A stretch of 64,000 bases of DNA from Euglena gracilis (taxonomy: Eukaryota), in assembly GCA_039621445.1 (NCBI GenBank), contig CP154954.1, positions 25,804,954 to 25,868,953 of the forward strand, read 5' to 3'. Of the stretch, positions 883 through 64,000 are shown in pieces (the first letter of the stretch is position 1; every line of letters begins with the position of its first letter). A model generated the notes under the pieces. The model was not told the DNA's origin and searched no databases. It was given only the letters and a program-made list of their open reading frames with translations. Made by a program: the position numbers and the translations under genes.

Positions 883-7180
<6,298 letters not shown>

Positions 7181-8041: not shown

Positions 8042-9632
8042 TAGTGGGTTTTGGTTTGGGAAAGAGTGCCTCCTCCCCGGGTGGCTAAGTGAGTGAATGT
8101 AAGGTCTGGACCATTTGCAAGGATTTTAGCAAAAGGAAGGCGAGACATTTTTGAAACGTTCTGGATGTTGAATACTCTCTGGCCCATCTTTGGACAAGGA
8201 GATTCTTCCCATCCCTGGCCCCCCGCAAGCCTCAAGCAGAATTTTATCAGCCTTAGGCGGCGCGAATTGCCCAAATTTTATGCCATTTTTTAGGCGGTCC
8301 AGGTGTGCGGGTTTCCGTGTACGCCACCCACCCGAAACTAAACTGATATTTCTGATAGTTAATGCAACCCAGAAATTGTACGCGGGTTTCCGCCTGTTTC
8401 CACTGTTTTGACACGTGACCGATTTTGGAAATTAATGGTGAAAAAGGGGTGGTTTTGTGAAATACCCCCCAGAAACCTGGCCGAAAATGTGAAAACGGAG
8501 AAGGGGTGGGAGAACACCTGGCCGTCGAAGCCCCGGCCGTGTCACGACGGAGCCGGACCCCACCTCCGGGAGGGGGGTGACATTGCGGAACCTGCGACGG
8601 AGAGGCACCCGCGTAAGCAACCCGCGCACTTTCTGAGGACTGGTGAGTGCCAACGACCAGTGACGGGAGGTGGGAAACGAACACCCCTGCTGAATGTATT
8701 CCATAATTTTTGAAAGATGGTCTGTTGGGCGGGAAACCGCACAGAACAGATGAACCGTGTGTGAAGGGGCTAACACTACGAGAGGGGGCTGAATGACTAT
8801 GGCTGGATAAAAGTGAACTTGTGCGGTTATCCGTGTAAAAACGTGTGGGAAACTCATGGAGACGTTTGACTTGGAACTGGACGTGACATCCACTGGGGCA
8901 CCTAACCCAAGGCAGCCCTCCTCCCATGCCCCCTCCCCCTCACCGCCCGCCTGCCAGAGGGAGACTGCGATAGCACACGAAAGCGCAACGACAGAAAGAA
9001 GGGTGGGAGGGGGAGGGTGTGTGTGTGCGGATCACCGTCCTGGTCCTGGAGGGGTCCTTTGTCCCGGGGGGAAGAGAGCGAGACGAAGTCTCTGTGGGCG
9101 GTCCAGAGGGGACAAAGGGAGAGAGCACACGGAGGGGACGAACGGACAGCCGAATGGGTGGTCCAGGTCCAGGGCACACGAGATGTGGTCTCAGAGAGGG
9201 GTATGTGTCAGAGAGGGATTTACACACTCCGTACACAATCGCAAAAGGTCTGGTTGGGCGCATTGAATGGGAGACCAGAATGTGTGAGCCCTGGACCTCA
9301 CACGGCGGTTGGGGCGTCCGGTGGGTCCCAGGTGGAAAAAACAGTTTGATGGAGTGGTCCAGGGGTTGGGTTCCCGTCGAAAGGTGAAAGGCGTTTGGGC
9401 AGTCCCCGGGGCAGTGGGTGTGCGGTGAGGGTGTGTGACACACAAAAAACAAAAGCAGCGGGCGGTCCCAGGTTCAAAAGCCTCAGGCGGTCCACACAGG
9501 AGGGGGCAGAGAGAGCTGCTCCCGTCGGCCGCCCACGGCCGTCCACGGCCGTGCACACGTGGGGATGGCGGCTGCCTGCCGCCCCGCCGCGCCCGGCCCG
9601 CCCGCCCGGCCCGCCCAGCCCGCGCTGCTGGC

Positions 9633-12600: not shown

Positions 12601-14620
12601 GTACCTGAGCACGAGAACGGTGACATCAGCAAAGAATCCCCTCACTACACACGCTTCCATGTACAAGCGTCTTTCCACGGAAACCCGCATGAGAATGACA
12701 AAATGGAGATCTGCACGGAAATCCGCCTGAGAACCACAACCTTCAGCATAAACCGTGTGGTCACACAGTGCGGAAGACAGCGCAGAGTAGACATACGGCG
12801 GGTCGGGTGAACGTGGTGAAGGTCCGGGTGCATCAGCAGCCACGTCCACGTGCGGCGGCGGATCAGCGTCCCCACCACCGCCTTGACGGCGGAGTGCCAT
12901 TCCTCCCCCGTCACATTGCACCCCAGCGCGCATGGTGTGGTGTGCGGTTTACCGCGTACTGTCTCTGTATCAACTCGAACAGTAAAACTGGTTGAACTGT
13001 CCCCCGTATGGTCACAGTTTTCTTGTGTGCGTGCGCCTGTGTCTGGCTGTCTGTGTGAAAGTGCGGGCAGAGTCCCAACGGAGACAGACAGTGAAATGGA
13101 CATCCGAACCAGCCGCACCGTCGTCGCCTTCGCCGCCTCGTCCAGCATCTCCCTCGTCAGGGCGACGTAGTCCTGCGGGTCGTACAGCTGCTCGATCGCC
13201 TTGAACGCGTACGGGGACAGCGCCGCCGCCACCCCCGTCGTGGGACCAGCGCCCGCACCGCCTCCACCACCGGCCGCCCGCTGTGCAGCAGCCACTCCGC
13301 CAGCGGCTGCATGGACTTCACCCAGTTGTCCTGCACAGATGAGGTCAGGGAGAGTTGGGGGGGGGGGGAGTGATGTGTACGTGATAGCTGGAATATCAAA
13401 GGACAGGGTGCGCGCACTCACTCTCCCTCTGACAAGCAAAAAAAAAAGAAAGGAAGCCATCCGTGTCAGCGGGAATCCGTGCATTGCATCAAACGGATAA
13501 CAGCGCACACGGAAATCCGTGCACACACCATCTTGCCGTGGGACGCCTCCGTGCACCCCGTCTTCACGTACACCCGCTTCAGCAGCTCCGTCCGGTTCAC
13601 CGTCAGGCGGGCGGCGGTCCCCGCCTCGCCGTCCGGCACCGCCCCCGGCCGCTCCCGCTCCACCTCCCGCTCCAGCCACTCCACCCGCTGGCTGAGGGAC
13701 ATCTCCCTCACCGTCCCGTCCCGGGCTTGCATGCTCCCCGCCACGCGCTGCCTCTCCTCGAGGCTGGCCGACCCCAGCACCGTGTGGCAGTTGAACCACT
13801 CGGTCCACTGCGGCGCCGGCCGCGCGTCGGCCACCGCCGCGTCCGCCACCTGGGTGGCCGCCAGGAAGCGGTGCTGCCCGCTCAGGATGACGAACTTCCC
13901 CGTCGCTGTGAAAACAGGGAGGACGACAGTGCCACTGAGTTTTGTTCCGGTGCACGGATTCCCGCCTGGATCACCACCCCAACTCCAAAAAAAAAAACAA
14001 GAACAAACGGTGTATGTTACATTATTCCGTCACGTGGGAAGCATCCGCCGCCATTTACAACATCCATGGATACAGACAGGCTGGCCAACTATGCTCGCAG
14101 AAACAAAACACACCCTGCTCCGGCCACACCACGAAGCTCAGGGCCCCCACCGGCGGGTTCTCCGTGAACGCCTTGACGAGGCTGTCCACGTGGGCCTTTT
14201 CGACCCGCCGCACCTGCCCTCGCGTGAGGGTCTCGTCCAGCACCAACACGTCAAAGCGCGGAGGCTGTCTGGCTCTCCAGGGTTTCAACTGGTCTGTCTG
14301 CTGCACGCGCACGCAGAACACAAATCTGAGCAGTTTGCACGGAAACCCGCACAGCTGTAGAAACCAAAGGGCGTCAATGACACTGAAACAAACTGGGTGA
14401 GTGTCATCCAACAAACGGAGTGACTTCTCCTGTACTTTCGAAAACATCCCAGGAATGAGGAACCGTCAAACACCCTCAGACGATTGTACGGCCAAAAAAA
14501 AAGTACAGAACCACACCAGCCAGCTCCAGACCCCCTCCGGACACGGGCCAGCGGGGTCGGGGTCTTCGACACCAGCTCCGTCGCCGAGCGAGTGGGCGCC
14601 GTGGGCTTCCGGGCTGCCAT
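9633..14620 (-). CDS. Accessory transposon gene of about 11 exons: N-terminal ParB/Srx-like domain, possible degenerate MTase-like region, charged low-complexity tail. At least one apparent frameshift (about 13240)
   Basis: GC3-rich exons are separated by GT-AG introns. GQVRRVEKAHVDSLVKAFTENP (about 14150-14225) is followed by GKFVILSGQHRFLAATQV (about 13850-13902), the GxHR signature of ParB N-terminal/sulfiredoxin folds. The last exon reads PKKKPTPAGALEELLNV* (TGA at 9633-35). Confidence 0.65.
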
Positions 14621-14857
14621 CAGAGGTCTAAAAAAACGAGGCAGCGTGAAAACAGCCGAAATGAAGGAAATTCAGGTCAGAAACAGTCCCCACACGAACA
14701 CTTTTGTGAAAATAAATAAGCACAAAATCTGGGACATTCAGTTCTATCAAAAAAATAATTGTCATTAAAGGAAACACAGCAGTGACCACCCCGCAGAGCA
14801 CCCCCCTTCTGGCTGGGTGGAGAATGCTTTTGCACGGAAACCCGCCCGCCACCCCCT

Positions 14858-17800
14858 TTACATTCTGAAACAAACCCTCACCCTCGCTCTGAAGGCCTCC
14901 ATCTGACTCCCTGATATACAGAAAGGTTCAGGAGCACGTAGAAAGACCGGGGTCCGGTAGGGACACACCGCCGCCGGGGAGAGACTGAGGTCCTCATCTG
15001 AGGAGGAGGACCCCGATGACGTCGGGCGGCTGCTCAGCAGCTCCCCCAGACTGCTGAGGCCGTCTGAGGCCGCCGGGGAGACGTATCCCTCGGACAGCGT
15101 GCCCGGGGGCTCGTACAGCGACTCCGCTGTACTGGGCGGCTCGTACAGGCTCTCCGCCTCGGGCAGCTCCAGCGCCGGCCATGCCGGTTGCACCGCAGGC
15201 GCCTGCACCACCGCCGCCTCGGCCGCGGAGGAACTGGGCTCCTCCGGGGTGAACCGCACCCGGCCCTCCACCGGGGACTCCTCAGCAGGCCTCATACCCG
15301 GCGGTGCAGGTGCTGCTGCAGGTGCTGCTGCACGGGTTTCCGCACGGGCCGCCGCCTCTGCGCGGGTTTCCGCCTGCCCGCTGGTCGCCGGTTCGACGTC
15401 CCCCGGAGGCGTAGGGCTGCGGCGCCGCCGCTGCCGCTGGTGGAGGAAGTTGTCCATCGCCCGCTGGCGACGGGCGAACTCCTGGGGGTCCACCGGCCTG
15501 ACGTTCTCCCGCATCCAGACCAGGATGTCGGGGGTCAGGGCCCGGCCGCTCACCAACGTCAGGAGGGAGGTCCGCATCAGGGCCTCCAGCGCCCGGACGT
15601 CCACGATCTCCGGCAGGATGGGCGGGGACCCCCACCGGGGGAACTCCACCTCAGAGGCGTCCACCCAGGCGATCCGCGTGGCGTCCACCCGGCGGGGGAA
15701 GGGGCGGCCCTCGGGGTGGTCCGCCAGCTGGCGCACCCGGTGGGTCATCTCGGCGACCAGTCCCAGCCGCAGGGAACCCCGGCTGGCGTGCGGCGCCCCC
15801 GACGGCGGCGGCAGGCCGAGGAACAGCTGCAGGGTGCCCCGGAAGTCCGTGACGTACGGCGACCGACGGCAGGCACCTGACAGGCGCGACAGCATCGCCT
15901 CGCCGGCCTCCTCAACGAAGACGCACCCGGGCAGGCGGGACATCCACGGCTGCCAGGTCAGCAGGGCCAGGGAGATGGTCCGCATGTACTCCGAGGGGAG
16001 GCCATGCGGACTCATGGCCCGCTCGAGGTGGGCCTGCAGGACCAGGCAGCGCTCCAGCACCTGCCGCGCCGTCTCCCCCTTCACCTCGTCGTCGGGGCGT
16101 CCGCGCCAGGTGCACTGCCGCACCTTGAAGCCGAGGTGGAGGAGGGCCGGCAGGAAGAAGGTCAGGAGGCGGTGCAGCCCCAGGAGCAGCTGCGGGCCGT
16201 ACGCGTCGGCCGCAGTGGGGGCGGAGACGTGCACGCGCTGGCTCTCCTCCCGGAGAAGAATCTCCAGGTGACGTCAGAGTGACAGATGAGCTTTGGAAGT
16301 GTCTTCACCCAAAGTTGGCCTGCGTGACCTATCACCAGGGTCCTTTACGCGGGTTTCCGCACAAAGCGGACAGACTGTGACGGACAGAAGGGAGAGATGT
16401 GACACCAAGTGACCCACGACATGACTGTGCGGATAACCGCACGAACATTGGTCCGATGTACCAGGTGCAGCCTGAAAGCAGCCAGCTCGGGCAGTGGTCA
16501 CCCTGGCTGGGGCAGCACGTCGGCCCGGGTCAACAGGAGGCTGGCGAACAGCTTCTCCATGTACAGCACCTTCCGGTGCGACCGCAGGGACGTCGTGAGC
16601 TGCCGGCTGCCCCCGGCGCCAACCGGCACCTCCAGGTGAGCCAGCACCGGGAAGAACGCCCGGTACACCACCGTCACCGTGTGCTTGTAGGCATGCCAGA
16701 TGCCGTACAGCAGGGGGACGTTGGCGAGGTGCTCCCCCATCCGGAAGCGCAGCGCCGGGGCCGAGTACAGGAGGCGGAGGATGCGGTAGTGGATGTTCTC
16801 ATCCACCAGGAGGGGCAGCTGACGGCCCGACCGCGCCTGCAGCTGCAGCACGGTCTCCAGGAGCTGGAGGAGGTCCCGGTTCGAGCTGACCGTCTGCTCG
16901 GTCAGGGAAAAGGGCCTCCACCGCAGCGACCGCATCGCGTCCCGCTGCATGTCCAGCGGGACGCGGACGTTGTCCACCGAGAGCTCCGCCCGGTGGAGGC
17001 CGCGCACCGCCTGGTGCAGCTTCTTCGCCGACTGCAGGCACAGGTCGGCCGCCCAGCGGAGGTGCTGCACCACCGTCCCGAACTCCGGGTGACCCGTGGA
17101 CACGGGGAACGTCACGGACCGCGTCAAAGTGCCCTGACGAGTTCGCAGGGGGTCAATCTGCAGCAGTCACCGCACAGAGGGCCTGCTCACTGAGCCAACC
17201 AGGCACATACATGTACGCATACACAACCCTGAAGTGTGCGGGTTTCCGTACAAACCAACACTGATTACACGGAAACCCGTACAAACGCGTCTGACAACCA
17301 CCTTTGTACTGAACCCTGTACACACCTTGGGGGATGTTCAGCTCTGTTCTCACCAGTGTCGTCGTTCACCTGTCCCTTGTCACCAACTGTGTCACCCCAA
17401 CTCGAGGTGTTCTTGAGCAGTTCATTCATTCAGTGCATTTTACAAGACAGAACATTCCCAGGCGGAAAACTGCGCAAGTCTTGTCATGCACGGATGGTCA
17501 TCAGGTCAGGCCCACTTCGCCAACAGCAGAAGACAGAGTAGGCACCCTGAACCCAGGGCGGTGACGTTGCGACTGTAGCTGGGCTGGGTGGGGTCTGTGC
17601 CCCACCGCAGCCAGCAGAAGTTGTCCAGCCACAGCACGCACTGGTGGCCGTCCAACGCCCGCAGCACTGCGTCCCGGGCCCTTAGCGCCGCTCCGCACCA
17701 GCTCCTCCGTGGGGCCCACCAGACCGGCGGGCCGCAGCAGTCGACGGGTAGCGCGGGGCAGGTCCTGCAGCGTCTGCTGCGCCGGGGCGGGGGCCAGGGC

Positions 17801-18126
17801 GGCCGCCGGCGTGACCAGCTCGCCAAAGGGCACAGCCAGCCGTCGCAGCGTCCTCCACAGCGCCAGCAGCCCGTCGGTGAAGCGGGCCATCCAATCGGCC
17901 GCTCGGACGGGGGCCGGGTGTACTCCCGCCGCACCTCCCGCAGGCTGCGACGGGACCGGCGGTTGGCCCTGACGGCCAGGCCTGTCTCCACCAGGTTGAG
18001 GGCTCCCAGGTGGCCTCTTCGGAGGGCGTCGTCCAGGATCGCCCAACCATCCGCCGGGGGGGCGCCGGCAAGGTACCCCCGCAGCTGGTCCAGCTGCAAC
18101 ACCAGCGTCTCAGACGAGGCGGCCAT
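14858..18126 (-). pseudogene. Putative DDE transposase (Transib/RAG1-like or DUF6589-like RNase H fold), 3 exons, frameshifted
   Basis: ATG at 18126 (MAASSETL). Motifs in order: CVLWLDNF (D about 17624), WRPFSLTEQ, LPLLVDENI (D about 16802), LYGIWHAYK, and LPGCVFVEEAGEAMLSRL (about 15900; recalled Transib motif LPIGxLSEEAxEAxNK). The coding frame switches within exon 1, and stops lie near the exon 2/3 borders. Confidence 0.6.
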
Positions 18127-21100
18127 TTTTTTTTTTTGCACAGTCTGAGACAACGGAGAAGAGAGTGTGCGGATTACCGCGCAGCAGAGGGTGCGTGAGT
18201 GAGTCAGGGACACAATGTAGACACATCTGCTGTACATGCTGAACATTGTTTTCAGTGAATGGACAAAGATCACTCACGTATGTACAGTTTCAACCGTGTT
18301 GTCACCCGCGTGTGGGCAGTGAAGCAGTGTCGTATCGTCGTGCCGACAAGGGCTCAGTCCTTTACACGGGAATCCGCACAACACTGCGCTGTGTTTGATT
18401 CAAATCTGTCATCGTAGCACACTGTGTTGTACCACACACCGCAGCCATTGTAGACCGCTTCTACGCGGGTTTCCGCACAACTGGTGGGAACATCGCAATG
18501 ACCTGTTCTTCCTTCGCTATTACCTCCCTCACCGTTGAAATGTTTGCGCTTGATTCTGTGCTGTTGTGCGGGTTCCCGTGTAAAGCCATGGAAGGCTGCT
18601 GTTCAGGGTTTCTCAAATTTGAAGCCGGCGGGGGCAACAGTACCCGGATCGGTCCGTACGGCGCAATTCAGAGCGCGATTCCAGGTAAGACGGCCCTCCA
18701 AAACCGAAGGACCTGGGACCTTGTCGCGATTCAGGGTGTTTAGTGGTACAAGCGGATGTTGAAATTCTCGCGATTTGTACCCCCTCGCGAACGGGATGTG
18801 CCACTGCGACGTAACCCCTGGGAAAACACCGTGGTCTGGGGGCCGAAGTCGTTGTTTGTGCGGTTTCCCGCACAAACCGCAGCTCCACGTCGTAGAAGGT
18901 GGCCTGTTTTGGGTGATGTCAAGGGAGCAGCAGTTCACCCTACGGATGTGTCTCGCGAACGACACAGGAACCGTAAACCAGTCGTGTACCACCAACCACC
19001 CTCAGTCGCGAAAGAGTCCCAGGTAGTCGTGTCCGGGGGAGGTCTACAGCACGCAATCGTGCGGCCCAGTTGGGCGTGTGCACTGAGTCCCCTCAGTGGC
19101 CTAGACCAACCCCCCCGGGGGTATACCGAACTGCTGTCAGCTTCCGCTTCGTTCAGCCTCCCTCCTCCGCACCAACCACAGAAGAGAAGAAAAGAGACCC
19201 TACACACACAAAAGAGACACACGTCGTGTATACATACACGCAGCCCGAGCGGATACCCGTACACGGACTCGTCCGTAAGGAAAAAGTAGGCAAGTGACCG
19301 CACCGGCCGGGAACCAGTGGCGTTGCCCACTGGGGTGGGCGGTCCCAGGGAGCTCGGCCACAAGAGGCCGTTACAGCCACTTGCCCAACATCTCTCTCCA
19401 GAGATCGCACATGGACTGTATAACATTCGCGAAACCACTGTTGGTGGTCAAGCCGGCGGTTACACCAAATGAAGGCCTCACGATCCAGATCCAGAAGCGT
19501 AGGAGGGAGAAGGGGCGGACATCTGTGCAGTGCACTGGGCCTCACGCCTTACGCGCTGGTCCGTTCTTGTACGCGGAAACCCGCACACATCGTCGCCGTT
19601 GGCGTGTGACCACACCACACAGACTCTGTCACCCTCGCCAGACCTCCACGCACACAACTGACCGGTGGCCTACGCATTCCGATCGCGAGGAAAACCGGTC
19701 CCCTACGCAGTGGTGTACCACCAAACGTCCAAAACGTGAAACACAAACACCCAGGTTCCATTTTCCTACCCAGTCGGTCGGGGGAGTCCGGGACGGGCGT
19801 CGTCGCCCCAGCTGCGTTGGTCCGCAAACGCCGCAACCGCACCCCCGTTGGGGAGGTCTGGGCAACCTGCCCCGGCGGTGCGGAGAGGTCAAAGGACCAC
19901 CCGGGCTCCTCATTATTCTTTTTATACACTTGGAATGTGTTACACGGATTCCCGCACAAGACATCCCGTTGGCTTTTCCATACTTCATGGGCTGCTCTAC
20001 ATCTGTTTGGAAACCCTCACACCCCTCTACGGACGACCACACTGCGTCGAGTTTCGCAACCAGTCAGCACCGCAGTCGCGGAAACACCGGTGTTCCCACC
20101 GTTTACGTGCCGTTTCGTTCTTGTTCAGGCCGGGGAGTTACACAGGCAGGCTCGCCGGGGAGAGGACCGCCCCCTCTTACAGGGGGATGGGGCAGCCAAC
20201 TGTTGGCCCACCACCACACCCGGCGGACACACCACCGTCACCGGCCGCGGCTGGGCCACCGTCCCGGTGACGGTTAGGGCACACGGGATGTGTCGGGGTG
20301 TGGTGCGACAGACAGGACGCTGCCCCCCGGTCCCCCTGGCCTCCCCACCATTTTTCGTTTGCACTTCAAGTAAACGCATCTGTCCTCTCGCGTAGTCTGG
20401 CCCACACACCCACCTCAACGTTCTGCGGTGTTGTGCGGATTCCCGCCCAACACCAAATGCCTTCGTTCTGTCCTTCACAGGTTACACGGGTTACCGCCTG
20501 GACGTCATAAATACAACTACGCTCTCTTTACGCGGTAATCCGCCTAAACCACACATCACAGTTTTCTTTCACATCACACCAAACACACAACACCCCCCTG
20601 TATCACACATCGTTGTGTTTGTTGTGTGCGGTAATCCGCACACACTCGTGTTGTTCACCTCACCTCACACACTGTGTGACAACAGACGTACCACCAATAT
20701 ACACCCACATTGTACACGTGTTACAATACCGTGCTTTTCTGGTACCTGTAACAGGGGTCTCATCACCACTGTTTTTGCGTACCTCTGCATCGTGTACTGT
20801 ACGATGCGCGGAATACCGCACAAAACCACTTTCATAAAATCTTGGCCCAAAGCTGCCACGTAACCCTTGTAACTCAAAATTTTGTTCCTTTTTCGCTGTT
20901 TTTAAAACAGCCAAAAAACACCAAAAAACGCAAAAATGGCGTGGGCAATTCGCGCCGCCTAAGTCAAATCTCAACTTGAGACCCCCCATTCGTGAAATTC
21001 ATGCATTTTGGCATATTTTGTCCTCATATTCCGTTATTGTTCTTCCTGCAAGTGCCGGGGAAGACTGGTGCATCGAGCGAGAACACATGAGATTTTGAGA

Positions 21101-21449: not shown

Positions 21450-30743
<9,294 letters not shown>

Positions 30744-49012: not shown

Positions 49013-50460
49013 GATACTCGGCTTGGTACTACGCGCCGGCTACCAACCTCCGTAGGATCTCCCGTCTGCCGCGCACAAAAACCTGGTATTGGTGCTGCTG
49101 GGCGACTACGCGACACCGTACCTACTTCAGGCCTTCGGGATTTCGACTTGAAACCCAGTGGAACGAGGGGGACACCGCTGCTCGCTTACCCTGCCTCATG
49201 GGGTACGGTAGTTGGTGTAACAATGGGCATGGGGGTAACTTTCTCGGTCCACCGGGTGTAGAAAACGTTTGTAGGTATAGTTGGTAACGGGGAAAATCTT
49301 TTTGGAAAACGGTATAGAAACGGTATGGTCGTCGCGGTTGACGCCACAGGTGATGAGAGTTTGTGGGGCAACGAACAGAATGGTGATGTGCGCAACCCAT
49401 GGGAGTGCCAATCCACTACCAGCCGGTGCTGACATAAAAGGGGTATCCCAGAATTACTTCAGAACCATGGATTCCGGATTTATATCCCCATGTATCTGGA
49501 AAAATTTGCGGGTGGGGGGGCGTGTGTGGTGCTTTGGGAGGAGGGATAGGAAAAAATGTTTGAGCAGAGTGGGATAAAACGGAGGAGGAAAGAAATGTGA
49601 AAATGAATTAAATTGAAAAGGTCCATATTTTACGCAATGAGATTATGTGAATAAACAACAACAAAAATGGCAATGTCACACCTGTCCTGCCAAAACGGAC
49701 ACCTCACAAAACGTAAAACCTGCAGAAAATTCATCGGGAAATCAAAATGTTTTTCGAATGTGAACAGGACTGAGCGAGAAGTTTTTTTTTAACCATTGAA
49801 ACACTGTGTTTGTCTTTTTACTGCCAAGCCTTGATCTTGTGGGGCAATAAAGACAGGAAATGAACATCTTTGACAACAAAGGACGCGTTTTGGAGGATGC
49901 AGATTCCATGATTTACAAAGGAATGTAATAAAACAGGCACTGTGCTGTTTTTAAATTGCAATGCGAACCCAGAAAAGGGTCATAGTCGGTTTAGTTGTGG
50001 ATGCTGATGGCAATGGCAGTACAATATGAGTGACTACAATTTCTTGGGCTCTGGGTTTGGGTTTGTATCTGGGGTCCTTCAAATTTCGGTGCTGCTTCCT
50101 TGTGTATTCCATTGCACGTACTGGGACGGTGGTGGATAAAGGGCAGCGGAGACATTCATTTCTGCGCTTCATTGCGCTCCCTGGGTGGGGATGGAGGGAC
50201 AAAGACCCAAGCGCACCCTCACCCGCTCATTTGCGACCCACTCCCGCCGCACCGTTTGCCCGACGCCATTCGCTGACTGCAGCCAATGGCCGTCCGCCAA
50301 CCCCTCCCCAGTGAGGTCTGCCGGCGTCCGTTGCAACACAACCGTCAGGGCGGGGTTTGATTGTCGGGCTTTCCATCCAGTACAGGCCACGCGCCACCCG
50401 AACTGTTCCTTGGGCCGCACTACTGGCCGCGGGATGTGTCTCGAAGAAAATCCCCCCGGC

Positions 50461-50863
50461 CAGGCTTTTGCTTAAGGGATTGCAGTGCCCCCCCTGGGGG
50501 GGGGGGGCTGGATTGCAGCTAGTCCAAAATTTGGCTAGTGGGGTTTCTAGGAGAGGGAGGGGGATTTCCCGGGGGAGGGTCTGCTAGCAGGGCTAGCTAG
50601 TGGGAAATTTTTTTCCAGTGACCGGCGCGAATCCCCGAAGTTTTTTTGGGACCCCCAAAAATGGCCAAAAATGCCCGTTTTTGGCTATTTTTGGGAATTT
50701 TTGGAACAAAATCAGCCAAAAACCTATTAAAAACCTCATTTTTAAGACCTAGCTAGACCCCCCTCCCCCCCGGGGGGGGGAGGGGGGTCTAGCTAGTCCA
50801 CTTTTTCCAGTGTCTAGCCGATTGGCTAGCCAGTACCCCCCGGGGTCCTTAAGCAAAAGCCTG
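50461..50863. mobile_element. hAT-type MITE
   Basis: Perfect 17-bp TIR CAGGCTTTTGCTTAAGG and perfect 8-bp TSD CCCCCGGC (50453-60 and 50864-71). GCTAG subterminal motifs are present. Confidence 0.9.
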
Positions 50864-50942
50864 CCCCCGGCGAACAATGAACAGTGAATAGTCGCGGGGT
50901 CGTGTTTGGTGAGTGTTGCTGTAGCACAGCCTGTCATGAGCA

Positions 50943-52723: not shown

Positions 52724-55700
52724 TACAATGCAGGGATTGGTGCTTCCTGAAATGGATAGCTACAGATAATTGCGGATCAGCCCAAAAATCCAAGGGTGAT
52801 AATTATAGATAATTATAGATTCTTATGGATAAGCCAAAAGTTTTGATCCCTGAGGATGGGCAATGACTGCATGAAGCTCATTTATTTTAAAAAGGCCATT
52901 TTCGCCCACTTTAGGTCATTTCTGGCTGCCTTGACTGATCCTGGCTGCTTTTCCGGCCTCCACTTTTGGTCACTTTAGACTACTTCTGGCTGCTTTTGGC
53001 CACTTTTATTTTTACTGCTGTTTGGCCACTTTTGGCTATTTCGTGGTGCGTCTGGTTGCTTCTGGCGTCCTTTGTTGTTTTTTATGGCATTTGCCTAGTT
53101 TTAGGCATTTTTAGGCGATATTGTGATTCGGTTTCATGCGTTTTCTGGATGGATATTCCCAGTAAGGAAGGGATTTTTTGGAATTGTGGATTTTTACAGA
53201 TAACTGCGGAGCACACCAATCCTTGTATAATTCTTTGGGTTGGGGTTTCCCAGTTGTATGTTCAAATCGGTCAATTTTGGGGTTTTGTCAGGAAAGTTTG
53301 TATTTTGGTGGGGGGTTTTTTGCGACGTTTGATTTCCACTCATCAAAATACTCATTGATCAAACCGGTGGAGTGTCTGTGTCTGTGTCTGTGGCTGGGTG
53401 GAATTGGGACATATCCATGAGGACAGTTTCCGCCTGGGAAAACTTTTTGGCCAGCTCGAAAAGCAAGTCTGTTTAAACAATGTGCACAGTCAAAGCGCTG
53501 CACGTTATAACAGGAGGTTTCGATTGTGTCCCATATTTGTTTCTCTTTTTTCCTGTTCGCAGGATTGTTCGTGATTTTTCGTGTCATCTGATTGCATGTG
53601 ATTTGCATGATTTTTTTGCGGATCTCAGAACAATATTCCCAGGGTTAATATCAGTTGTATGTTACATTTCTGGAATGATTGTCAAGATTGCAGTCAAAAT
53701 TTGCAGACGACCTGCAACGTTTGCGATCATGATTGCTGTCTCCGAGATCAAAACAAAATGATTCAAAAATAGTAACCCCCCAAAAAATAATACCCCTTGG
53801 GGTATTATTTTTTCGCCCGAAGTCCCGGCCCAAGGGGGGGTATTACTTGGGGGGAAGGTAATAGCTCCACAAGGTTTTCAAAAATTTTCGAAGCTCCATA
53901 GAACCCAGAATAGCACCCAAAACCCCCCATTTATTGCATTTTCGCATGAAATTTAGCATTTTTGGAGGCCTCGTGATCAATATCAGGTCAATATCTGGGT
54001 CGTCGGCCTGAAATTTGGGGGAGGGTATTAACTCGGTCGCCTCCCGGCCCAGGGGGGGGGGGGTATAACTTGGGAGAGGATCTAGTCAAAAATTTCCATA
54101 CCCCTATGTTTTGTGTGTGAAAATCTGAGACCAGCCGTTGAGAGCAAAAAAATTTGCGATTTGATGCCCCATTCCCACACTGTACGTGTTTGTGTTGCTT
54201 GCACCACACTTATGATGATGATCAGCACACGCTCCATATGCTCCAGCTACAAGTTTTGGTATCTCCCAATCCACAGAAGTTGCCATATGCTGTGAAAATG
54301 ACTTTTTTTGAATCAAGCGGTGCAAACCGCCTCCGTTTTCTAGCACCCCCTCCCCCCCCCCCCGGGCAGGGCTGTACGGGAAGGCCTGGTGGGGGGGGTC
54401 GGACCCCCCCCCCAAGGGGAGGGGGGCGGGGGAGGGGGGGGGTGGGGTCGACCCCCACCACCCACCAGGGCACCCGCTCAAAAAAAAATTATTTTGGCTG
54501 CCCTGTGTGGTCCAAAGTGTGCCGGCCATGTTCTGGCAGCAACAGCCCCCTCCCTGCACTGACAGCACAGGCCCCCCGCCCCATCAAGCCGACTCAGTAG
54601 CTCGGGGCCCTCCATCACACCGGTGGCCCCGGCCAACACCCCACGCCTCAGGCGGTCGCCTGAGAAGAACCGGCATTCCGACAAGCCCTTTCCTTTTGTT
54701 GTGACGGGGCGCTTCTCCGGTTTTCGAGACCAGAAACACCCCTCTTCCCCTGGGGTCGGTTATTTTTACCTATTCTCTGGTTTGACCCTAACCGCATCTT
54801 TACCCTTAACACGCTGATGCCCAACATGTTCTGCATACATTTTGGGACAGTCTCTAGGGAGGAGACCCCGCATCGACGCAGGCAAGCACCTCCAGCGACA
54901 AATCCCGACAAATCTGACAAATTCAACAATTATGGAAATTTAGCATGTGCCTCTAGTAATATACCCAGTTCATTTTTGCTTTATTTTTTGGGGACGAGAT
55001 TTGGGGGTTTGCTTTGCTCGTAGGTTGTCATAACCCAAATTCACGCTCCACGTCATCAATGACGCTTTTGGTTTGTATGTGTACCGCGAAAGGAGTTCCT
55101 ATGCCATAGAAAGTCTGATAAGGGAAGATCACCATCCCATAGAGAAACCATATGGTGGGCCACACCTTATTTGGCTTTGAAAAGAAGTCACTGACTGGTT
55201 TTTGGAAGAGTGTAAATTAAACCGAATTCCCAGAACAACAATTGACAAAGAAACAAAAGGCAAAGAATATCTACGGCTTCTGCTTCTGGAGGGTTCATGA
55301 GAGTACCCCCCCCCTCCGGGGTACACAGGGAAAACGAAGGCAGAGCATTCTTCGATTGGGCTGCTTCAACGGGAGGGGATACATCTTTCCACAGGGTTCT
55401 GAAGGCACACATTTGGAATGCAATTTTTGAGTTTCATTGAGCTTCCGCATTCTGCAGAGGCTTTTGAGGGGAACGAAACGGGATCGCAGTTGTCACCTTC
55501 CGCCCCCTTGGCTCCACAAATATGCTCAGGGTTTGGCATCCCCCGTTGTACGTATGATTCCACACAATTGGCCCCTTGGGGGGGGGTCATTTCCGTTTGG
55601 GTAATTTGGCCCGTTTTCCTGTGCTGTCCACCGGGGTGACAACCGGCGTCGATCACCTGTTCTGACGTCCAGTTGGGGGGAGGGGACGATGCAAGCAGAA

Positions 55701-57390
55701 TAGAAACCATGTTTCTGATCCCTGTGAGGAGGCGTTGAGCCGGTGGCCAAGTGACAGTGTTGCTGGATGTGCAACGGCTTGGGCCCATCACCAAATGCTG
55801 GGGCTTCCCTCTTTGATGGCACCATATATATATATCCGGCTCCCGCCCCCTGCCCGCCCACCCGCCTGCCTGCCCCCCCCCTGCCTGTCGACCTGACTTG
55901 CACGTGTGTCGATTCACTCCCGCACAGACAATTGCCCACTCCCGCACAGGCCCTCGCCGACTGCTGGCCCCCTCATCACCCTGCCATTTCCAAAGCCAGT
56001 CTCTGTCCGGGCTTTTTTTAAGGAAGGTCGCACCCCCCAGGGAAATGCAATGGGCAGGGGGTTTGGCATTTCAGTCCCCCCCCCTGAGTGGTTTGAAGTG
56101 GGTACTGCTATGGTAGTTTTTTTTTGGGTTTTTTTTGCTCTTTCGACGCCTCACCGGAATTTGAGGCACCACAAGGGTGGAGACAGCGAAGCCTGCTCTG
56201 ACTGACTGTCTGACCCAACCCACTCCCGCGAAAAGCTCCCCAGCCTCGACTTCTGACCATCCTGCACAGCTCCTCGCCCCACCCCAGACACCACAGCTTT
56301 CCGTCTGGTTCTGCAGTCTTCAGCACCCCAGCCGATGCCTGATACCGGCACAGAACGTTGACTCTTAGTGCTTTCAGATCCTGTTTCACGGTATGTGTTC
56401 GAAGAGTGCCGAGAACGCAACTGGGGATTTAGGCGGGCATCAACAAAGTCTTGCTCGTTCTTGCTGTCTTTTTTCTCTCCATTGTGCAGGTGCACCAGTG
56501 CACCCCCTAAAGGAATCCTTTCTGGAGTAGGCAGATGGGGAGTGGTGAATCAAAGGTGAAGGGTCTAATCGAACATTTCTGGTTTTCACCCATATTTTGT
56601 TTTGGGGGTGCCTGGGGAACCGCCCCTTCCTCCTCCTCCTCCTCCTCCTCCTCCTCCTCTTCTTCAAGGAACATTTTCCCTCCAAGCAGGGTGAAGTCCC
56701 TGGGTCCGAGGGGGTATTACCGGGTCTGGCCGACCTTTTTCCCCATAGAGAAATGCCCACACAGCATAGCTTTAACGAGTTTGACATGGAAGAGTTAGCC
56801 CGAGGAACATGTGATGGGCCATTTATCAAAAATACACAATGTGGTGTCCCGGTGTCCCTTAAACCACAAGGAGGAGAAGAAGAAGAAGAAGAAGAGGCGG
56901 AGGAGGGGGAAGAGGAAGAGGTGGTGGTGGCGGAGGAGGAGGAGGAGGAAGAGGAAGGAACACTGCACTTTGCCCACCTATTTGTCCAACCGTTGCCATC
57001 ACCCTCTCCTCCTTCTCCCCGCAGCCCCTCCACTCGGCCGGGCGATGGACAACCTTCTCCAGGCCAACACCCCCGTCCAGCGCGAGGGCGCCCAGCCCAC
57101 GCCCAGCTTTCCCCCCGGCCAGGGCTGTCCGGGAAGCCCCGAGACCTTGACAGGGGTCAACCCCCCCACCAAGCCTTCCCGTACCGCCCTGCCTCCGGCA
57201 GCCTGCCCTCCTCCCCGCAGGTCAGCTTCCTCACCGCCCTGGGGCAGGCAGGCAAAGGGTTGGGTGGCCAACCCCCCCCCCCCCGCGGGCGCGTGGAAAC
57301 TGTTTCGCCGGCATGCTTGGAGGAGTGATTCCGCAAAGTGGAGCCTCCCACAGTACCCCACATTTAAGGGTGGGGGCTCCATTTTATGCC

Positions 57391-57730: not shown

Positions 57731-59120
57731 GGGCTGGCCCTTGGGCTTGGGCCAGGTCGGGGCGGGACGCGCGCATCAGGTCCCCTCCTCCTCCCCACGG
57801 CGGCCCCCCTGCCAACCCAGCCCCCGCCCCGTGCCAGCCGCCCGCCCCCCTCGCCATGGTGCTGACCAACTCCCCGCCCCCGCCCCGCCAAGCCACCTCC
57901 CCCACCCTGGGCCGGACTGGGGGGGTGGAGGGGGGCGGACGGCATTATGTTTCAGGCAAGTGCTTTTTTCAATTTTGGGGGTATTTTAAGGCTTTTTGAG
58001 GCATTTATTTTCCAAGGCACAGTCCGGACATCAAACCAACGTCGGTCCGATTCAAAAGCCAAAAAAAAGTCGAAAAACTCATTTAGGTGGATGGCAGTTT
58101 TCCAGCGATGCCAAAAAATCATTTTTTCCCGGGTTAGCTTGTTTTGCCAATATTTTTCTTCATTATTTATTGCTAGGTCAGAGAAAATTCTGCCAAAATG
58201 ACTGATGTTGACTGACTGGTGTTTTGAGGCATTTTAAGGCGCATCGTGTTGTTTCAGGTTTTTTAAGTTGCGGTATTGCCTAGGTGGGTGAGGGGTGTGG
58301 TTTGGTGGCCAATGGGGGGGGGACCGCAAACAGGGGATCGGGGCACCCCACACACCCATAAATTAATGGAATTTAATTGATTTATTTTTTTAATTAATCA
58401 ACTAAAAGCGTGTCCCAAACGCCATTCTTGTTCTGACGCATCATCACATTTGAAAGGGTCGGCATTGCAAATCGGTGCGCGTCGGACAAGCGGCCGGCAG
58501 CCCCGCCCGGCGCCCAAGCTGGGGGCGCGGTCCCCCTGGAAGGGCCGGCTAGGCAGCAGCCGCATGTCCAAGACCGAGTCCCTCGCCAACAAGCAAGGCT
58601 CCATGGCCGCGGCCGGCTCGAGCGTTGGTTGAGACACACGTTCAAGAGGCAAATACCCCCTCTGTTGTAAGGCAGGGTGCGCTGTGGCCAACGAGGGTTG
58701 CTGGGGGTGGTGGCGTCGGGCTACGCGTCCAAACAGTGTACAGTTGTAGTGATCTTTTCGAAGGGGTTGCATATTTTTTCCTCATCAACCAGGGTTTCGC
58801 CGGCCAAAAAAAAAACAGAACAGACAGTTCAGAGTGTGTCTCTGAGGTGGGAAATATCCAAGAAAGTTGTTTTTTTGAGGCATTTGCATTTGCATCTTAA
58901 ATTGTTGAATGGCTGGCCATTCCTTTGTTTGGTTAGCCTGGGGGGGGAGAGGTGCTCAAGGACAGACTTGCTCACTCCGTCGGCTAGGGCTCCTCTGCTT
59001 GCACCCTGTATTTGGAAGGGTAAATCTGATCGCCCCTGCCTGCCAGAAAGGTTCGCTGCTCAATGTACTCCACACAGGGGCAGTTAAACCAGCTTTGCGT
59101 GCAGGTCCTGCCCCAACAAT

Positions 59121-59265
59121 AAAGATGAGTGTTGAACCAACATGAAAGGGAGGTCCTCCAAAGGACTCCTCAAAGAGAGGTTCTCCAAAAGTTAAAGATG
59201 AGTTGAAACCAACATGAAAGGGAGGTCCTCCAAAGGACTCCTCAAAGAGAGGTTCTCCAAAAGTT
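59121..59265. repeat. Tandem duplication of about 72 bp
   Basis: AAAGATGAGT...CCAACATGAAAGGGAGGTCCTCCAAAGGACTCCTCAAAGAGAGGTTCTCCAAAAGTT occurs twice. Confidence 0.9.
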
Positions 59266-59549
59266 CGTCGGAAATTTTCCATTACTTTGTCTCCGATTAT
59301 GGTCCAAAACAGGTGTTTCCAAATCAGAAGCAGAGATTCTGCAGTGCCCTTTTTGACGCATACTGAGTACAAAAATGAGAACCACAAACGCTTTACATTT
59401 TCAGCGTTTTCTTTCAGTCTCGATTCCGTCAACTTTTTTCAGTCTCCATTAAAAAGCAATCTTTCAATTATAATTGGTTTCCCAAAATGCTTGAGGTTTT
59501 TCCACACATTTTTTTTTAGAGGTTTGGAAATCAAGATATATATATATAA

Positions 59550-60056
59550 GGTAGCAAGAGTTACTCGGCCCACGGGCAGAGTAAAGTCTACAGGGGGAGG
59601 GGGGTCCGTGTAGCATCCCCCACGCCCAAGCTTCGGGAAAATTCGGGGCTATTTCTCGGGATAGGGTTAGGGTTCCGACCGGATTCCGGGACGGCGCCCC
59701 ATTTGGAATTTAGGTAGAGGTTCGGCCGCATTGCCGACAGTTTCCGACCGAATTAGGGTCGAATTGCGGTAAAATTACGACGAAAGGGCGACCCAAAAAT
59801 CTTCAAAACGGCGACCTAACTTCCGGCCTAACTTTATCCCTAAAACGTGCCAATTTTCTGTGCGCCGATTCTAACCCTAACCTTATTCCTCTGATAATAA
59901 GTGCGGTCTCGCCCCGGATCCGACGGAGTTGGCCCGGATCCGGCGCTGTTCCGGGGCCCCGCGGGGCCGAATCGGCTGGACCGGGGGACTGGTGGGATTC
60001 TACACGTGCCCCCCCCTGGAGGTTTTACTCTAAAGTCTTGCTAAAGTCTTGCTGCC
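59550..60056. mobile_element. MITE-like element inserted in a (TA)n tract
   Basis: GGTAGCAAGAGTT...AGAGTAAA..CAGGGG on the left mirrors CCCCTG..TTTACTCT...AAGTCTTGCTGCC on the right. TA runs lie on both sides. Confidence 0.65.
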
Positions 60057-60211
60057 ATATATAAATATAATATATGTTATATACTAATAGACGTGTATAT
60101 GTGCATATATATATATATATATATATCTGTATGTATAATAGATATAATTATAATATACAAAATAAACGAAACCGCTGAATTCTCCGTCACCGTGGAGCCA
60201 GCCCTCAAGAG

Positions 60212-63200
60212 GTGCCCAACGCTGGCGCCTCCGGCTTCGAGGGGGCCCCGGGGTCGATCCATGAGCCGCCGGAGCTGGACCTCGACGCGGACCTGGAGAA
60301 GGAGCTGTCCCTGGAGCCGGAGGTGGTGGAGGAGGTGCCCCACGTGTTCCGGATCGTCCTGACGGGAGGGCCCTGTGGGGGTGTGCCGTCCTTCCGGAAA
60401 TTCCTGCTCTTGCGGTGGACCATGCTCAATGATGATTTCGACTCCCCCTTTGGCGCTCTTCTTCCGTTGGGTTGTATAATAACGTTCTGTGTTCTTTGTC
60501 ATCCCCATCCCAGGCCTGAAACCCCATATGGGTGGTGGGTGGGGGCCCCCCCCACCAGGACGGATTTGAGGTGGGAGTTTTTTAAATTTTCTCTTCGGCT
60601 CCAAAGGAATTTCCGCTTGTGCGGTGCTGTGGTGGGGGTGGGGTTCGGCCCCCAGACCTTCCCGTGCAACCCCGCGCCGCCTCTTCGGTGCAGCACGGAG
60701 TCTGCCGCCACCCCCATCAGTCTGGAGCCACCCCCCACCCATGACGTCCCTCCCCGCCTGCCGGTTTCCCTCGCAGGTAAGACGACTGCGCTCTCCACCA
60801 TCGCGGACTACCTCCGGTCCCTGGGCACCCAGGTCCGTGTGCTCCCCAGCCCTGTGCCGCGCCTGCCAGCAGGCGGTGCGTGGTTGGCCCCGCCCTTGCA
60901 GCATTATCCGCTGGGGACGGCACCGTCTCTGCAACACGGCTGATGGCGCAGCACGTGCTGTGCAGCTTTTCGTTCGGCGGTAGAGCATAGGATGGCCCCC
61001 AAAGTGCGATGGGAATCGGGCAATTTCACGGGAACTGCAAGAAACCAGCAAGAAAACAGTGGCCCGGCTATCCACCCAGGCCACAAATTTTCCCCCTGAG
61101 ACCCCCCCCGCAGCATTTGCATACGTTCCGAAAGTCAGCCTTTCGTCCTTCGGCCCCCGCCCCCCACAGGTGTTCATGGTGCCGGAGAACGCCACCATCT
61201 TCGCCAACGGCGGGGCGGGCTTCCCGGTGCACTCCTCCAAGGCGCAGCAGATGTGCTGGGAGCAGGGCCATGCAGGAATCCCCACAACCTTATGGGGGGG
61301 GGGCGCCCCCCCCCCCCCATCCTGGTGGTCGGGGGGGGGGATCCCGACAACAGGGGGGGGGGAATGCGTTTCGCATTTTTTCGCATTTTTGCGCAGCGCA
61401 TGCGCACAAATTTTCCTGCGCACCCCCGCCCCGCAGCGCTGCTTTTTGACACATTTTTCGTGATTTTCTAAAATTTTCGCAGACCATTTTTGCAATTTTG
61501 CAAAAATTTGAAATTTTCGACGCTTAAACCCTCACTACATCAAGGTGCCAGCATGGGGGTAGCAGGGAGCATTTTTTCTGGATTTTGCACATTTTTGCGC
61601 ACACAAAAATGCGCAGCGCATTTTGCGCATTTTTGCGCACCGAGGGGGCGAGCGCACCCCCCCCCCCCTGCCGACAACCCCTCCCCACCAGGCTTTCCCG
61701 GTGCAGCCCTGGCCGGGAGAGCTCCCGCATCATGTGCCAGATGAAGATGGAGGGCCAGCGGCCCCTTGGCGCCACCCCCCCCCCCGGTCGGGACGCTATT
61801 GTTTGAAAAGAATGGAAGTGTTTTTTCTGCCGCTGCGGCCCATCCCCCTGGGCACTCTGGGCATTGGTGAGACGCCGCCAAAATTTCGGTATTTCGGCAT
61901 CGACCTATCCAAAATTTCGGTATTTCGGTATCGACCTCGCCAAAATTTTGATGTCGACCTCTGCTACCCTTCACATTCCCCGAAAAGAGGTGTCTCATCA
62001 TCGTCGCCGTTACTGAGTCAGGATTTGAATTCTTTTTTGATGTTTCCCAGGGCGTTTTGTGTCTCGCCGCCAAGTAACATAGGGGCCTTTGTTTTGCACA
62101 GGAGGATGGCAGGAGGTCGATGGCCCCGCTTCCGGTCTCGTTTCTGAGATGGATGCAGCCATACCCCGACGTACCCGGCTCAGCCTCCTCCACCTGGGAT
62201 TGCCATCCTGGAGGCATCAACAGAGTGCAAATTGCATTATTTCCTGGAACAGCAGAAAGTTGCCCACGTGTTGAAAACGTGGTGGTTTTTGGAAGGCCTG
62301 GAAGTGACAGGGAGACAACAAGAAGGCCAGCCAGTGCAAGATCATTCGAGGGCAAGTATTACCCCAACCCCGGGGGGGGGGGGGGCAGGAGAGTGGGCAA
62401 TGCACCGCTGCGGGGGACTGCTTCATCCAGATCGCGAAGTCGAGCGGCAAGCCCACCGTGGTGCTGTGCGACCGCGGGACGATGGACGCTGCAGCCTACA
62501 TGGACTCGCAGGTCTGACCCCACCCCACCTTTGAAGAGTACTGGCTGGGGCTCAAATGATCCGTCGAATGAAGCCCGATGTGTAGAGACCAGGTCAAGCG
62601 CATTGGCTGGAAATTTCGAGTTTGCTGAAAAAGGCTCCAGGCTAACTCCCATCCCCTGGGTTGGGGTCCCAATGCTGGGAGCAGACCAGCGCTCGCACCC
62701 AACGTAGGAAACATGGAGGTGGAGATGTGAAAGCAAAAAGAGCAAGGCATTTTTTGATTTTGAAGTTCCATACAAAACGTTGCATACAAAATTGATCAGG
62801 AAAAAAATTGGTTGGGCAAAAATCGCCCAAATATTTCCTCAGCATTTTAAGGATTCCGCCCAATTTTTTCACCGACTGTGCACTTGAAGCATCTCCAGAA
62901 AAAGATATACCAAATGGTTGTTTTCTGGATGAATTCTGGTTTTTGTTCCTTTTTTCTGAACTCAATCTAATGAATTCTGGATAAAAGGAAGGGACATATG
63001 CCAAGGGGCTAAGGGCTGATAACTCGGTGGCCGAGAGTTCAGCGCCGGACCGAGGGGTCGTGCATTGATTGTCATTCAGCATCATGTTTTCTAGAAGGAG
63101 AACCACCACTCACTTATTTCCAGACCAATTACCATAGTTTGGGTGCCCAAATATGTGCCCAATTTTTCCGCAATCAATTTTTCCTGAACTAATTTATACA

Positions 63201-63982
63201 GGACCAATTTTTGACCCCTCCCCCAGTATTTTTCAACCCGATTTTGGCCTAATTTAGGAATCCATTTCAAAATGCAACGGCGTTATTGTCCACGACGATT
63301 AAATCAGGAGTAAGGCCGAGGCTGGAAATAGGCTAGCTGGCTGACCTCCCCAGCAGCTTCACCAATAAAGGGATTCAGGAGGTTTTCGCATCATATCAGC
63401 AGTGCAGCATGGCAATTCTGCTTTTCTTTGAGTCTTCTTTTGCTTACAGGTTTATTCATGTTTTTCTAATACGTTTCACCTGCATTATTCCGATCGATTG
63501 TAGTGTGGTGGCATCTAGGCAGAGCAACATCTCATGGAGCGAAAAGGACCGTGCCAGGATGGGGGTTTGTGGCACCTCCGTGCAATGATTCCGCAGCGCT
63601 GGAACGAGCTAATGGAGCAGATGGGATGGCCAGGGATAGTCCGGCGCTGTGGCAGCAAAGCGCCCCCTCCCCCTGATGGGGTCTGTCCACGGACCCGGAG
63701 GATGGCGGCTGGCTTGGTCCTGGGTGGCCCCCGCACGCCTGGTTTCAGGCATGGCGACGCAGGAGTGGCCAACGTTGGCACTCCCACTGCCCCCCCCCCG
63801 GCCGGTCCCTGAGGGCCGGCAGACGGACATGCTGCGGGAGGAACGGTACGACGCGGTGATCCACCTGCACTCCACGGCCATCGGGGCGGAGGACTACTAC
63901 ACGCTGAGCAACAACCAGGCCCGGCGGGAGGGGCTGCAGCAGGCCGCGGAGCTGGATCAGAAGATCGCCGCGGTGTGGGCTG
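60212..63982 (+). CDS. Ttd14-like (AAA_28, NadR/Ttd14 family) P-loop NTPase, partial. Exons: to 60380, 60777-60832, 61170-61259, 61717-61752, 62416-62511, 63597-63627, 63818-~63982. The 5' exons probably extend to about 57045
   Basis: Spliced: VFRIVLTGGPCGGKTTALSTIADYLRSLGTQVFMVPENATIFANGGAGFP...CQMKMEDCFIQIAKSSGKPTVVLCDRGTMDAAAYMDSQRWNELMEQMGWQTDMLREERYDAVIHLHSTAIGAEDYYTLSNNQARREG. Walker A, CDRG and RYDAVIHL motifs are present. Confidence 0.85.
61260..61716 (+). other. Non-conventional intron, MITE-like
   Basis: Ends read gagCAGGGC...GCCCTGgccgg. Removal restores QMCW|ESSRIM. The 8-mers flanking the stem are GCTGGGAG and GCCGGGAG. Confidence 0.8.
61753..62415 (+). other. Non-conventional intron
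   Basis: Ends read ggcCAGcgg...ccgCTGcgggg. Removal restores MKME|DCFIQIAK. Confidence 0.8.
63628..63817 (+). other. Non-conventional intron
   Basis: ggcCAGGGA pairs with TCCCTG. Removal restores MGW-QTDMLREE. Confidence 0.6.
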
Positions 63983-64000
63983 GCGGGGGCCTGGGAGCGT

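Follow-up and report, generated by a model that had tools for sequence, protein, structure and literature searches.

Nonconventional introns of euglenids are cut at set distances from a helix formed by their own ends. The locus described here raises the question whether the 3 nucleotides (nt) and 5 nt removed outside this helix add up to one copy of the target-site duplication (TSD) left by a transposon. We analysed 64,000 nt of Euglena gracilis DNA (assembly GCA_039621445.1, contig CP154954.1, positions 25,804,954 to 25,868,953; hereafter the window, numbered from its first letter), which is GC-rich and eukaryotic, carries microsatellites as well as poly-G/C tracts and has split genes. The subject is the intron at 61260-61716, which lies in a gene with weak matches to the AAA_28 domain and is a copy of a dispersed family of inverted-repeat elements. 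A first-pass annotation made from the letters alone had proposed that such introns look like transposable elements of the miniature inverted-repeat kind (MITEs) from the hAT superfamily and that the offset of 3+5 nt equals one 8-bp TSD.

Parts of this proposal have a history. A MITE-like origin of euglenid nonconventional introns was proposed in 2013 (Milanowski et al. 2014, PMC3935182). The code N3-CDG...CH'G-N5-6, followed by a purine, was established by knock-ins (Nomura et al. 2025, PMC12501133): the 5' spacer did not tolerate changes of one nt, and the 3' spacer tolerated one additional nt. The same paper suggests MITE-like elements again as the source and reports that nonconventional introns make up 71.8% of the introns of E. 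agilis. A 2024 review treats CAG and CTG at positions +4 to +6 and -8 to -6 as terminal inverted repeats and speaks of "TSD-like" repeats at the junctions; its accessible text gives no length or superfamily for them and leaves hAT unmentioned (PMC11282704). The MITE origin, the TSD-like repeats and the N3/N5-6 code are therefore already published.

RNA joints were mapped over 57750-64000 using two contig sets (X1 and X2) and two raw RNA runs (X21 and X24) with the same species label as the window DNA. Ten joints were listed in this range, and eight of them were backed by at least two runs, comprising five non GT-AG and three GT..AG introns. The joint of the focal intron connects 61257, the last exon base, with 61715, the first exon base, so that 457 nt are skipped with an ambiguity of 5 nt. 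It was seen in three of the four RNA sets, namely in a 2351-nt X1 contig, in one X2 contig and in 13 X21 reads with 13 distinct starts, while no X24 read crossed it. In the leftmost register the skipped stretch begins with GG and ends with CC, and its borders are not GT/GC-AG in X1, X2 or X21. No GT..AG register, such as a spliceosomal introner would have, exists within the 5-nt slide. A back-splice joint of the focal intron was absent from the RNA joints listed, among which reads were few.

Within the slide that the RNA allows, the register 61260-61716 reads GAG-CAGGGC...GCCCTG-GCCGG followed by an exon G, a purine. This places CAG at +4 to +6 and CTG at -8 to -6, in agreement with the published nonconventional code, and the CAGGGC/GCCCTG ends can form a 6-bp Watson-Crick helix. 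The start of the stem at +4 and its end at -6, predicted from the sequence, agree with this register. In its non GT-AG borders, the positions of CAG and CTG, the ends that can pair, the purine at the exon start and the slidable direct repeats, the focal intron is an ordinary member of the euglenid nonconventional introns as described in PMC12501133 and PMC3935182, and it does not differ from them in kind.

The ends of this intron recur elsewhere in the window. The family motif CAGGGCnnnnCSGGAA (CAGGGCNNNNCSGGAA) was found at eight window sites against 1.19 expected, a number that none of 100 shuffles reached; a 19-mer version of it occurred at five sites against 0.02 expected, and an nhmmer profile of the family ends detected nine ends at E<0.01. 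The ends are of two types, an A-type that runs on ...GGAAnCCCCnAnAC and a B-type that runs on ...GGAAGGCCTGGTGGGGGGGGTCGACC. When eight B-type ends were aligned, homology of about 100 bp stopped exactly at ...CCCTG and the flanks then diverged. The terminus of the element coincides with the C-G pair at the outer end of the splicing helix, and, since the homology stops at this edge, splicing removes the element together with 3+5 = 8 nt. The focal intron is therefore a copy of a dispersed inverted-repeat element family. Its 3' end had been assigned to such a family before, which the motif sites and the eight-copy alignment confirm. The interior of the focal intron had no copy in a self-BLAST of the window (E<=1e-3), and its high copy number shows up in RNA contigs only. 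A scan of metagenomes with the B-end pattern returned 0 loci, these metagenome scans having yielded no euglenid DNA.

The two 8-mers that abut the focal element (element F), each of them partly exon and partly intron, are direct repeats identical at 7/8 positions, as had been reported. The flanks of a 72-bp family member (element Z) are likewise 7/8 identical, and those of a 403-bp MITE (element M) are 8/8 identical. M lies between two copies of CCCCCGGC (50453-50460 and 50864-50871) that match over exactly 8 bp, and this is the sole exact 8-bp direct repeat beside a perfect inverted repeat of at least 8 bp in the window. The earlier description of M as a CAGG...CCTG MITE with a perfect 8-bp repeat therefore needs no change. 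M is single-copy in the window. The inverted-repeat ends, which read CAGGGC..., agree at 16/20 positions in Z and at 17/20 in M. M, which the first-pass annotation had called free, itself fits the splicing code (GGC-CAG...CTG-CCCCC, then G), and so does Z, for which a nonconventional intron is predicted at 57117-57196 (GGC-CAG...CTG-CCTCC, then G). All three frames are open for 93-204 codons around Z, hence a frame test does not discriminate there. Z could rank among the shortest nonconventional introns; it sits in what is likely the 5' part of the focal gene.

We put the probability at roughly 60% that a TSD-making MITE with CAGGG...CCCTG ends became the focal nonconventional intron and that the cut at the helix erases this element along with one of the two duplicated copies. 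In this scenario a short DNA transposon of the non-autonomous kind, its inverted repeats reading CAGGG...CCCTG, would have inserted in an exon of the AAA_28-domain gene, duplicating 8 bp of its target, and a second MITE would later have inserted inside the first. In the RNA, the two transposon ends would pair, and a nonconventional splicing activity would cut 3 nt upstream of CAG and 5 nt downstream of CTG. Such a cut would take out the element plus 8 nt, equal to one duplicated copy, and would bring back the reading frame that existed before the insertion. Drawing on some nine elements whose flanks share a motif, we infer that the 8-mers are duplications of a preferred GC-rich target (approximately CCCCCGGC), that the transposon was hAT-like and that this logic also accounts for the 3+5 rule across the intron class. 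As to the claim that the splicing geometry exactly cancels an insertion, the removal of the element with exactly 8 nt stands, whereas flanks that share a motif do not prove the duplication.

How far the flank identity exceeds chance was assessed in several ways. Random pairs of window 8-mers agreed on average at 2.03/8 positions, at least seven matches having a probability of about 0.0009 and at least five one of about 0.034; single values of 5/8 are individually unremarkable. Among 1530 CAGNNN...NNNCTG pairs, three had flanks of at least 7/8, compared with 0-2 (mean 0.75) in eight shifted registers. When all 64 terminal trinucleotides were examined with inverted-repeat ends of at least 12/16, CAG alone showed an excess of flanks of at least 6/8 (5/122 pairs vs 0.75 in shifted registers), although one of these five pairs is a cross-pair and one is probably due to chance. 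A scan of registers from 3 to 14 nt over nine elements, a small sample, gave the highest identity at 8 nt (49/72 = 0.68, the next being 0.54), with individual peaks at 8 for M, Z and F, at 7 for a MITE nested in the focal intron and at 9 for the intron 63628-63817. Re-pairing of left and right flanks among eight elements reached the observed 46/64 in only 6 of 40320 permutations. The age series that the first-pass annotation saw in the window was not significant, identity of inverted repeats and of flanks being related with a Spearman rho of 0.49 (p 0.13, n 11).

The remaining nonconventional introns agree with the 3+5 geometry in part. For the five verified non GT-AG introns, the helix offsets sum to 8 in three cases and to 9 in one, and one intron has no such helix. 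Two of these verified introns, 57901-58512 and 58605-60255, were absent from the first-pass annotation. The junctions that had been inferred for 61753-62415 and 63628-63817 agree with the RNA; the 3+5 geometry claimed for them holds for 61753-62415, as for 61260-61716, but not for 63628-63817, which is 3+6. The flank counts given earlier were reproduced (6/8 for 3790-4640, 5/8 for 61753-62415 and 28628-30642, 2/8 for 959-1872), including the six matches of 63628-63817 that require a 1-nt shift. Outside the RNA-covered range, 959-1872, 3790-4640 and 28628-30642 are introns predicted from sequence only. The exon translations of the focal gene match AAA_28 weakly (E-values of 0.0025 and 0.004, which do not reach the Pfam cut-off), and from these matches together with the RNA joints the locus is a euglenid-type gene that mixes conventional and nonconventional introns. 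On the whole, the first-pass observation was partly confirmed, its junctions being right where RNA could test them, and its interpretation was partly supported.

Several results weigh against a MITE origin with erasure of one TSD copy. The minimum-free-energy fold of 496 nt with the whole focal intron uses a GGGAGC/GCUCCC end-to-end helix, not CAGGGC/GCCCTG, and RNA evidence of splicing exists for a single member of the family. The MITE nested in the focal intron is bordered by direct repeats of 7 bp, not 8 (CCGACAA at 61344-61350 and 61671-61677). The 3+6 offset of 63628-63817 and the missing helix of 58605-60255 do not follow the rule, and the published code itself tolerates N6 at the 3' side. 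The proposed comparison with other registers favours 8 nt among 3-14, but without M and F, which had been picked for their 8-mers, the lead of register 8 over register 7 is weak (34/56 = 0.61 vs 27/49 = 0.55). Furthermore, one motif underlies the sequences that flank M, Z, F and Y, the latter another complete family member: they read CCCCCGGC and CCTCCGGC, or the reverse complement is taken for GCCGGGAG, GCTGGGAG and GCCGGGGG. With the better orientation chosen, different elements agree at 6-8 of 8 positions, a level as high as that within elements. As one motif runs across the elements, within-pair identity alone is no proof of duplication in the window.

The shared motif gives weight to an explanation in which the repeats are real, but the 8-mers represent a common GC-rich context, or a sequence that the cutting enzyme favours at the two junctions, and 3+5 = 8 is a coincidence. 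The motif C[CT][CT]CC[GA]G[CG] has 116 sites in the 64 kb. When either orientation was allowed for the re-paired flanks, 584 of 40320 permutations of eight elements reached the observed value, and with the five elements defined by inverted repeats 20 of 120 did so, which is not significant. Junction repeats are also not specific to nonconventional introns, since slides of 3, 5 and 5 nt also occur in the three conventional GT-AG introns of this gene; direct repeats were reported at 84.4% of all introns, conventional ones included (PMC12501133), and both junctions tend to place a purine after a pyrimidine (PMC11282704). Against this, the flanks are direct, not inverted, and abut both ends of inverted-repeat elements, the repeat of M is perfect over 8 bp and ends at that length, same-orientation re-pairing rarely reached the observed identity, and spacer sequences are described as weakly conserved (PMC12501133). 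The orientation of the motif relative to both element and transcript flips between Z and F/Y, which fits a target at the DNA level and not a signal at the RNA level or a sequence carried by the element. We therefore consider this explanation rather unlikely and read the shared motif as a strong target preference on the grounds that the repeats are direct and lie right beside inverted-repeat ends, that M matches over 8 bp only and that the motif flips; much of the flank identity could reflect this preference and not duplication. The motif suggests an unusually strict GC-rich insertion target. The flip also speaks against spread at the RNA level, in which an excised circular intron would be reinserted by reverse splicing or reverse transcription with its N3 and N5 spacers carried along. 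Nonconventional introns are reported to be released as full-length circles (PMC11282704), and the 8 nt are almost identical in several copies. Such reinsertion, however, would not make the five upstream exon nt resemble N5 or the three downstream exon nt resemble N3, whereas in M, Z and F the match extends over both halves; the copies end at ...CCCTG, not 5 nt beyond, and copies or fragments also occur inside a conventional intron. We regard this route as very improbable.

If the elements are MITEs with 8-bp duplications, their superfamily has to be weighed as well. Ends of hAT elements follow the consensus YARNG, those of Ac/Ds start with CAGGG or TAGGG, the target consensus of the Ac family is nTnnnnAn, and Ds1-type elements are an example of hAT MITEs. 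The ends found here, CAGGGC..., have a YARNG-type start and are short inverted repeats of a length that suits hAT. Published hAT elements have 8-bp TSDs and inverted repeats of 5-27 bp, with CAG(G/A)GGTAGGC as the inverted repeat of a hAT MITE and nnnTAnnn as the target consensus of the Buster family (PMC3517528). Like the hAT MITE Mar of Drosophila (PMC3517528), the window elements are short and non-coding, with inverted repeats of about 16-20 bp that start from CAGGG and with 8-bp direct repeats. They differ in having a GC-rich flank motif (about CCCCCGGC) in place of nTnnnnAn or nnnTAnnn, to neither of which CCCCCGGC, CCTCCGGC, GCTGGGAG, GCCGGGAG and GCCGGGGG conform, and in the 7-bp repeat of the nested element. 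A Pfam search of 133 open reading frames (ORFs) of the window found no transposase domain, the AAA_28 matches being weak and below the cut-off and PRIMA1 giving one weak match on a proline-rich ORF; the hAT label is thus a structural one, drawn from the TSD length and the CAGGG start. The hAT origin proposed in the first-pass annotation accordingly keeps these two features in its favour, while the target consensus and the lack of a transposase domain in the window count against it. The same two points would suit a non-hAT superfamily, such as Merlin, P, a Mutator-like or an undescribed group, as would the two Merlin families with 8-bp TSDs documented in E. gracilis (PMC8101967) and the lack of a euglenid hAT in the literature found on Euglena, hAT and transposon. 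Both of these Merlin families, however, end in GGTACTTGT... and have AT-rich duplications, and Merlin inverted repeats start with 5'-GG (PMC8101967), beside an 8-9-bp duplication, whereas the ends here start with 5'-CAGG at a boundary set by eight aligned copies; the window elements are therefore unlike the Merlin MITEs. Given also that the CAGGG start matches the Ac/Ds ends and the known hAT MITE inverted repeat (PMC3517528), we find a non-hAT source distinctly unlikely.

The proposed origin has a parallel in introners, where likewise a DNA transposon inserts in an exon and RNA processing removes it with one duplication copy, so that the insertion is silent. This is the case for the introners of Micromonas and Aureococcus and for other introns derived from transposons (Huff et al. 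2016; summary in PMC11282704), and noncanonical introners of Amoebophrya have inverted repeats and TSDs of 3-5 nt (PMC7789003). In introners, however, the splice site on which the spliceosome acts comes from the element or from the duplication, whereas in the focal intron the removal is set by the distance of 3 and 5 nt from a helix of the element's own ends. The window adds a case in which the intron is one copy of a dispersed element family and the edge of the helix is where the element terminates; the accessible parts of PMC12501133 and PMC3935182 propose a MITE-like source without showing this. No statement that 3+5 equals the duplication length, and no link to hAT or another superfamily, was found in a literature search that covered passages of PMC12501133, PMC3935182, PMC11282704, PMC11170887 and PMC12621601 but lacked many subscription papers and the sliding-distance supplement of PMC12501133, the latter of which may bear on the claim.

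Table 1. Introns, elements, element ends and flanking 8-mers in the window
Feature	Position	Strand	Details
Focal nonconventional intron, published register	61260..61716	+	RNA range 61258-61714 (leftmost register) shifted right 0-5 nt
Left 8-mer GCTGGGAG	61255..61262	+	5 exon nt + 3 intron nt, abuts element
Right 8-mer GCCGGGAG	61712..61719	+	5 intron nt + 3 exon nt, abuts element
Repeat family CAGGGCTGTACGGGAAGGCCTGGTGG			Ends of CAGGGCTGTACGGGAAG type
Element F, outer MITE-like element of focal intron	61263..61711	+	Complete A...B element; A-type end CAGGGCCATGCAGGAATCCCC; B-type end CAGGGCTGCACCGGGAAAGCCTGGTG read inward
Second MITE, nested in focal intron, 320 bp	61351..61670	+	CAGGGGGGGGGG...CCCCCCCCCCCCTG
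Element M, 403-bp MITE	50461..50863		17/17 terminal inverted repeat CAGGCTTTTGCTTAAGG
Element Z, 72-bp family member	57120..57191	+	Complete A...B element; flanks CCCCCGGC and CCTCCGGC, 7/8
Element Y	29232..30171	+	Complete A...B element; flanks 5/8; contains element X
Element X, family member inside Y	29295-29980		Flanks 6/8
Solo or diverged B-ends	2313, 25261, 29072, 54367, 60674		
Solo B-type family end	54367..54502	-	CCCCCGGG precedes
Intron, non GT-AG	57904..58515	+	RNA-verified, 612 nt; leftmost register 57901-58512, rightward slide 4 nt; helix CTGGGC/GCCCGG; 3+5; flanks 5/8
Intron, non GT-AG	58605..60255	+	RNA-verified, 1651 nt; leftmost register, rightward slide 1 nt; no CAG/CTG-type terminal helix at 3/5
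Intron, non GT-AG	61753..62415	+	RNA-verified; leftmost register 61752-62414, rightward slide 2 nt; helix CAGCGG/CCGCTG; 3+5; flanks 5/8
Intron, non GT-AG	63628..63817	+	RNA-verified; leftmost register, rightward slide 3 nt; helix CAGGGAT/GTCCCTG; 3+6, sum 9; flanks 6/9 only in 9-nt register
Introns, GT..AG	60380-60775; 60830-61166; 62507-63591		RNA-backed

The MITE nested in the focal intron stands out in the RNA data. Contig depth was 143-763 in the bin 61303-61511 and 43-146 on neighbouring exons, loose ends lay at 61351 in X2, X21 and X24, and the first ~45 nt of this MITE were very abundant in RNA contigs. From this depth and from reads of other copies that end at 61351, the nested MITE is high-copy. 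A 20-mer of it hit two loci in metagenomes, which are bacterial membrane-protein genes and were rejected as chance matches. About 40 nt upstream of the focal intron, the coding exon stretch 61218-61233 holds GGCTTCCCGGTGCA, which nearly repeats the core of the intron's B-end, GGCTTTCCCGGTGCA (61691-61706), with one indel between them; the focal B-end is closer to this exon stretch than to the family consensus (..CCCGTACA..), which may be due to chance, to conversion or to the remnant of an older element.

Further family copies and fragments are scattered in the window. A B-end fragment at 60593-60674 sits inside a conventional GT-AG intron, so the family is not restricted to nonconventional introns. 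The partner end of the solo B-end at 54367-54502 was not found, and a search for partners of the solo B-ends gave one plausible candidate (24667-25261, flanks 6/8), which was found via its flank match and was not counted. At least four nested or adjacent copies cluster at 28700-30200 (ends at 28785, 29072, 29232, 29295, 29980 and 30171), within a 2-kb intron proposed in the first-pass annotation; one left end there reads TAGGGC, not CAGGGC. CCCCCGGC or a one-off variant of it abuts the CAG ends of four elements from two inverted-repeat families (50453-50460, 54359-54366, 57112-57119 and, as the reverse complement, 29224-29231). Elsewhere, mostly on the minus strand of 9400-18300, there are long ORFs with a GC content at third codon positions of 0.8-0.94 (for example 14861-16273, 16501-17166 and 11579-12304); they had no Pfam match and probably belong to a large lineage-specific gene. 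A fraction of the X21 RNA reads carries single-base differences in exons (61196 C>T, 62490 T>C and 63867 G>C), which may be alleles, strain differences or paralogues.

If the link between the spacers and the duplication holds, the spacer rule would be a consequence of transposon biology and not an arbitrary one, and it would explain how insertions in exons could be tolerated immediately. A further step would be that the 3-nt and 5-nt cutting distances exist because the splicing system evolved to erase, in RNA, one CAG...CTG superfamily that makes 8-bp duplications, an idea we put forward tentatively, with the odds somewhat against it. Were it true, each new exon insertion of such an element would be born as a precisely removable intron, which would account for the large share of CAG-CTG introns in Euglena. 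It would also predict a flank signal at register 8 that is most marked in young families, as well as an autonomous element, hAT-like, that shares these ends. The link offers a simple genome-wide test on existing data and, with it, a testable origin for an odd class of introns.

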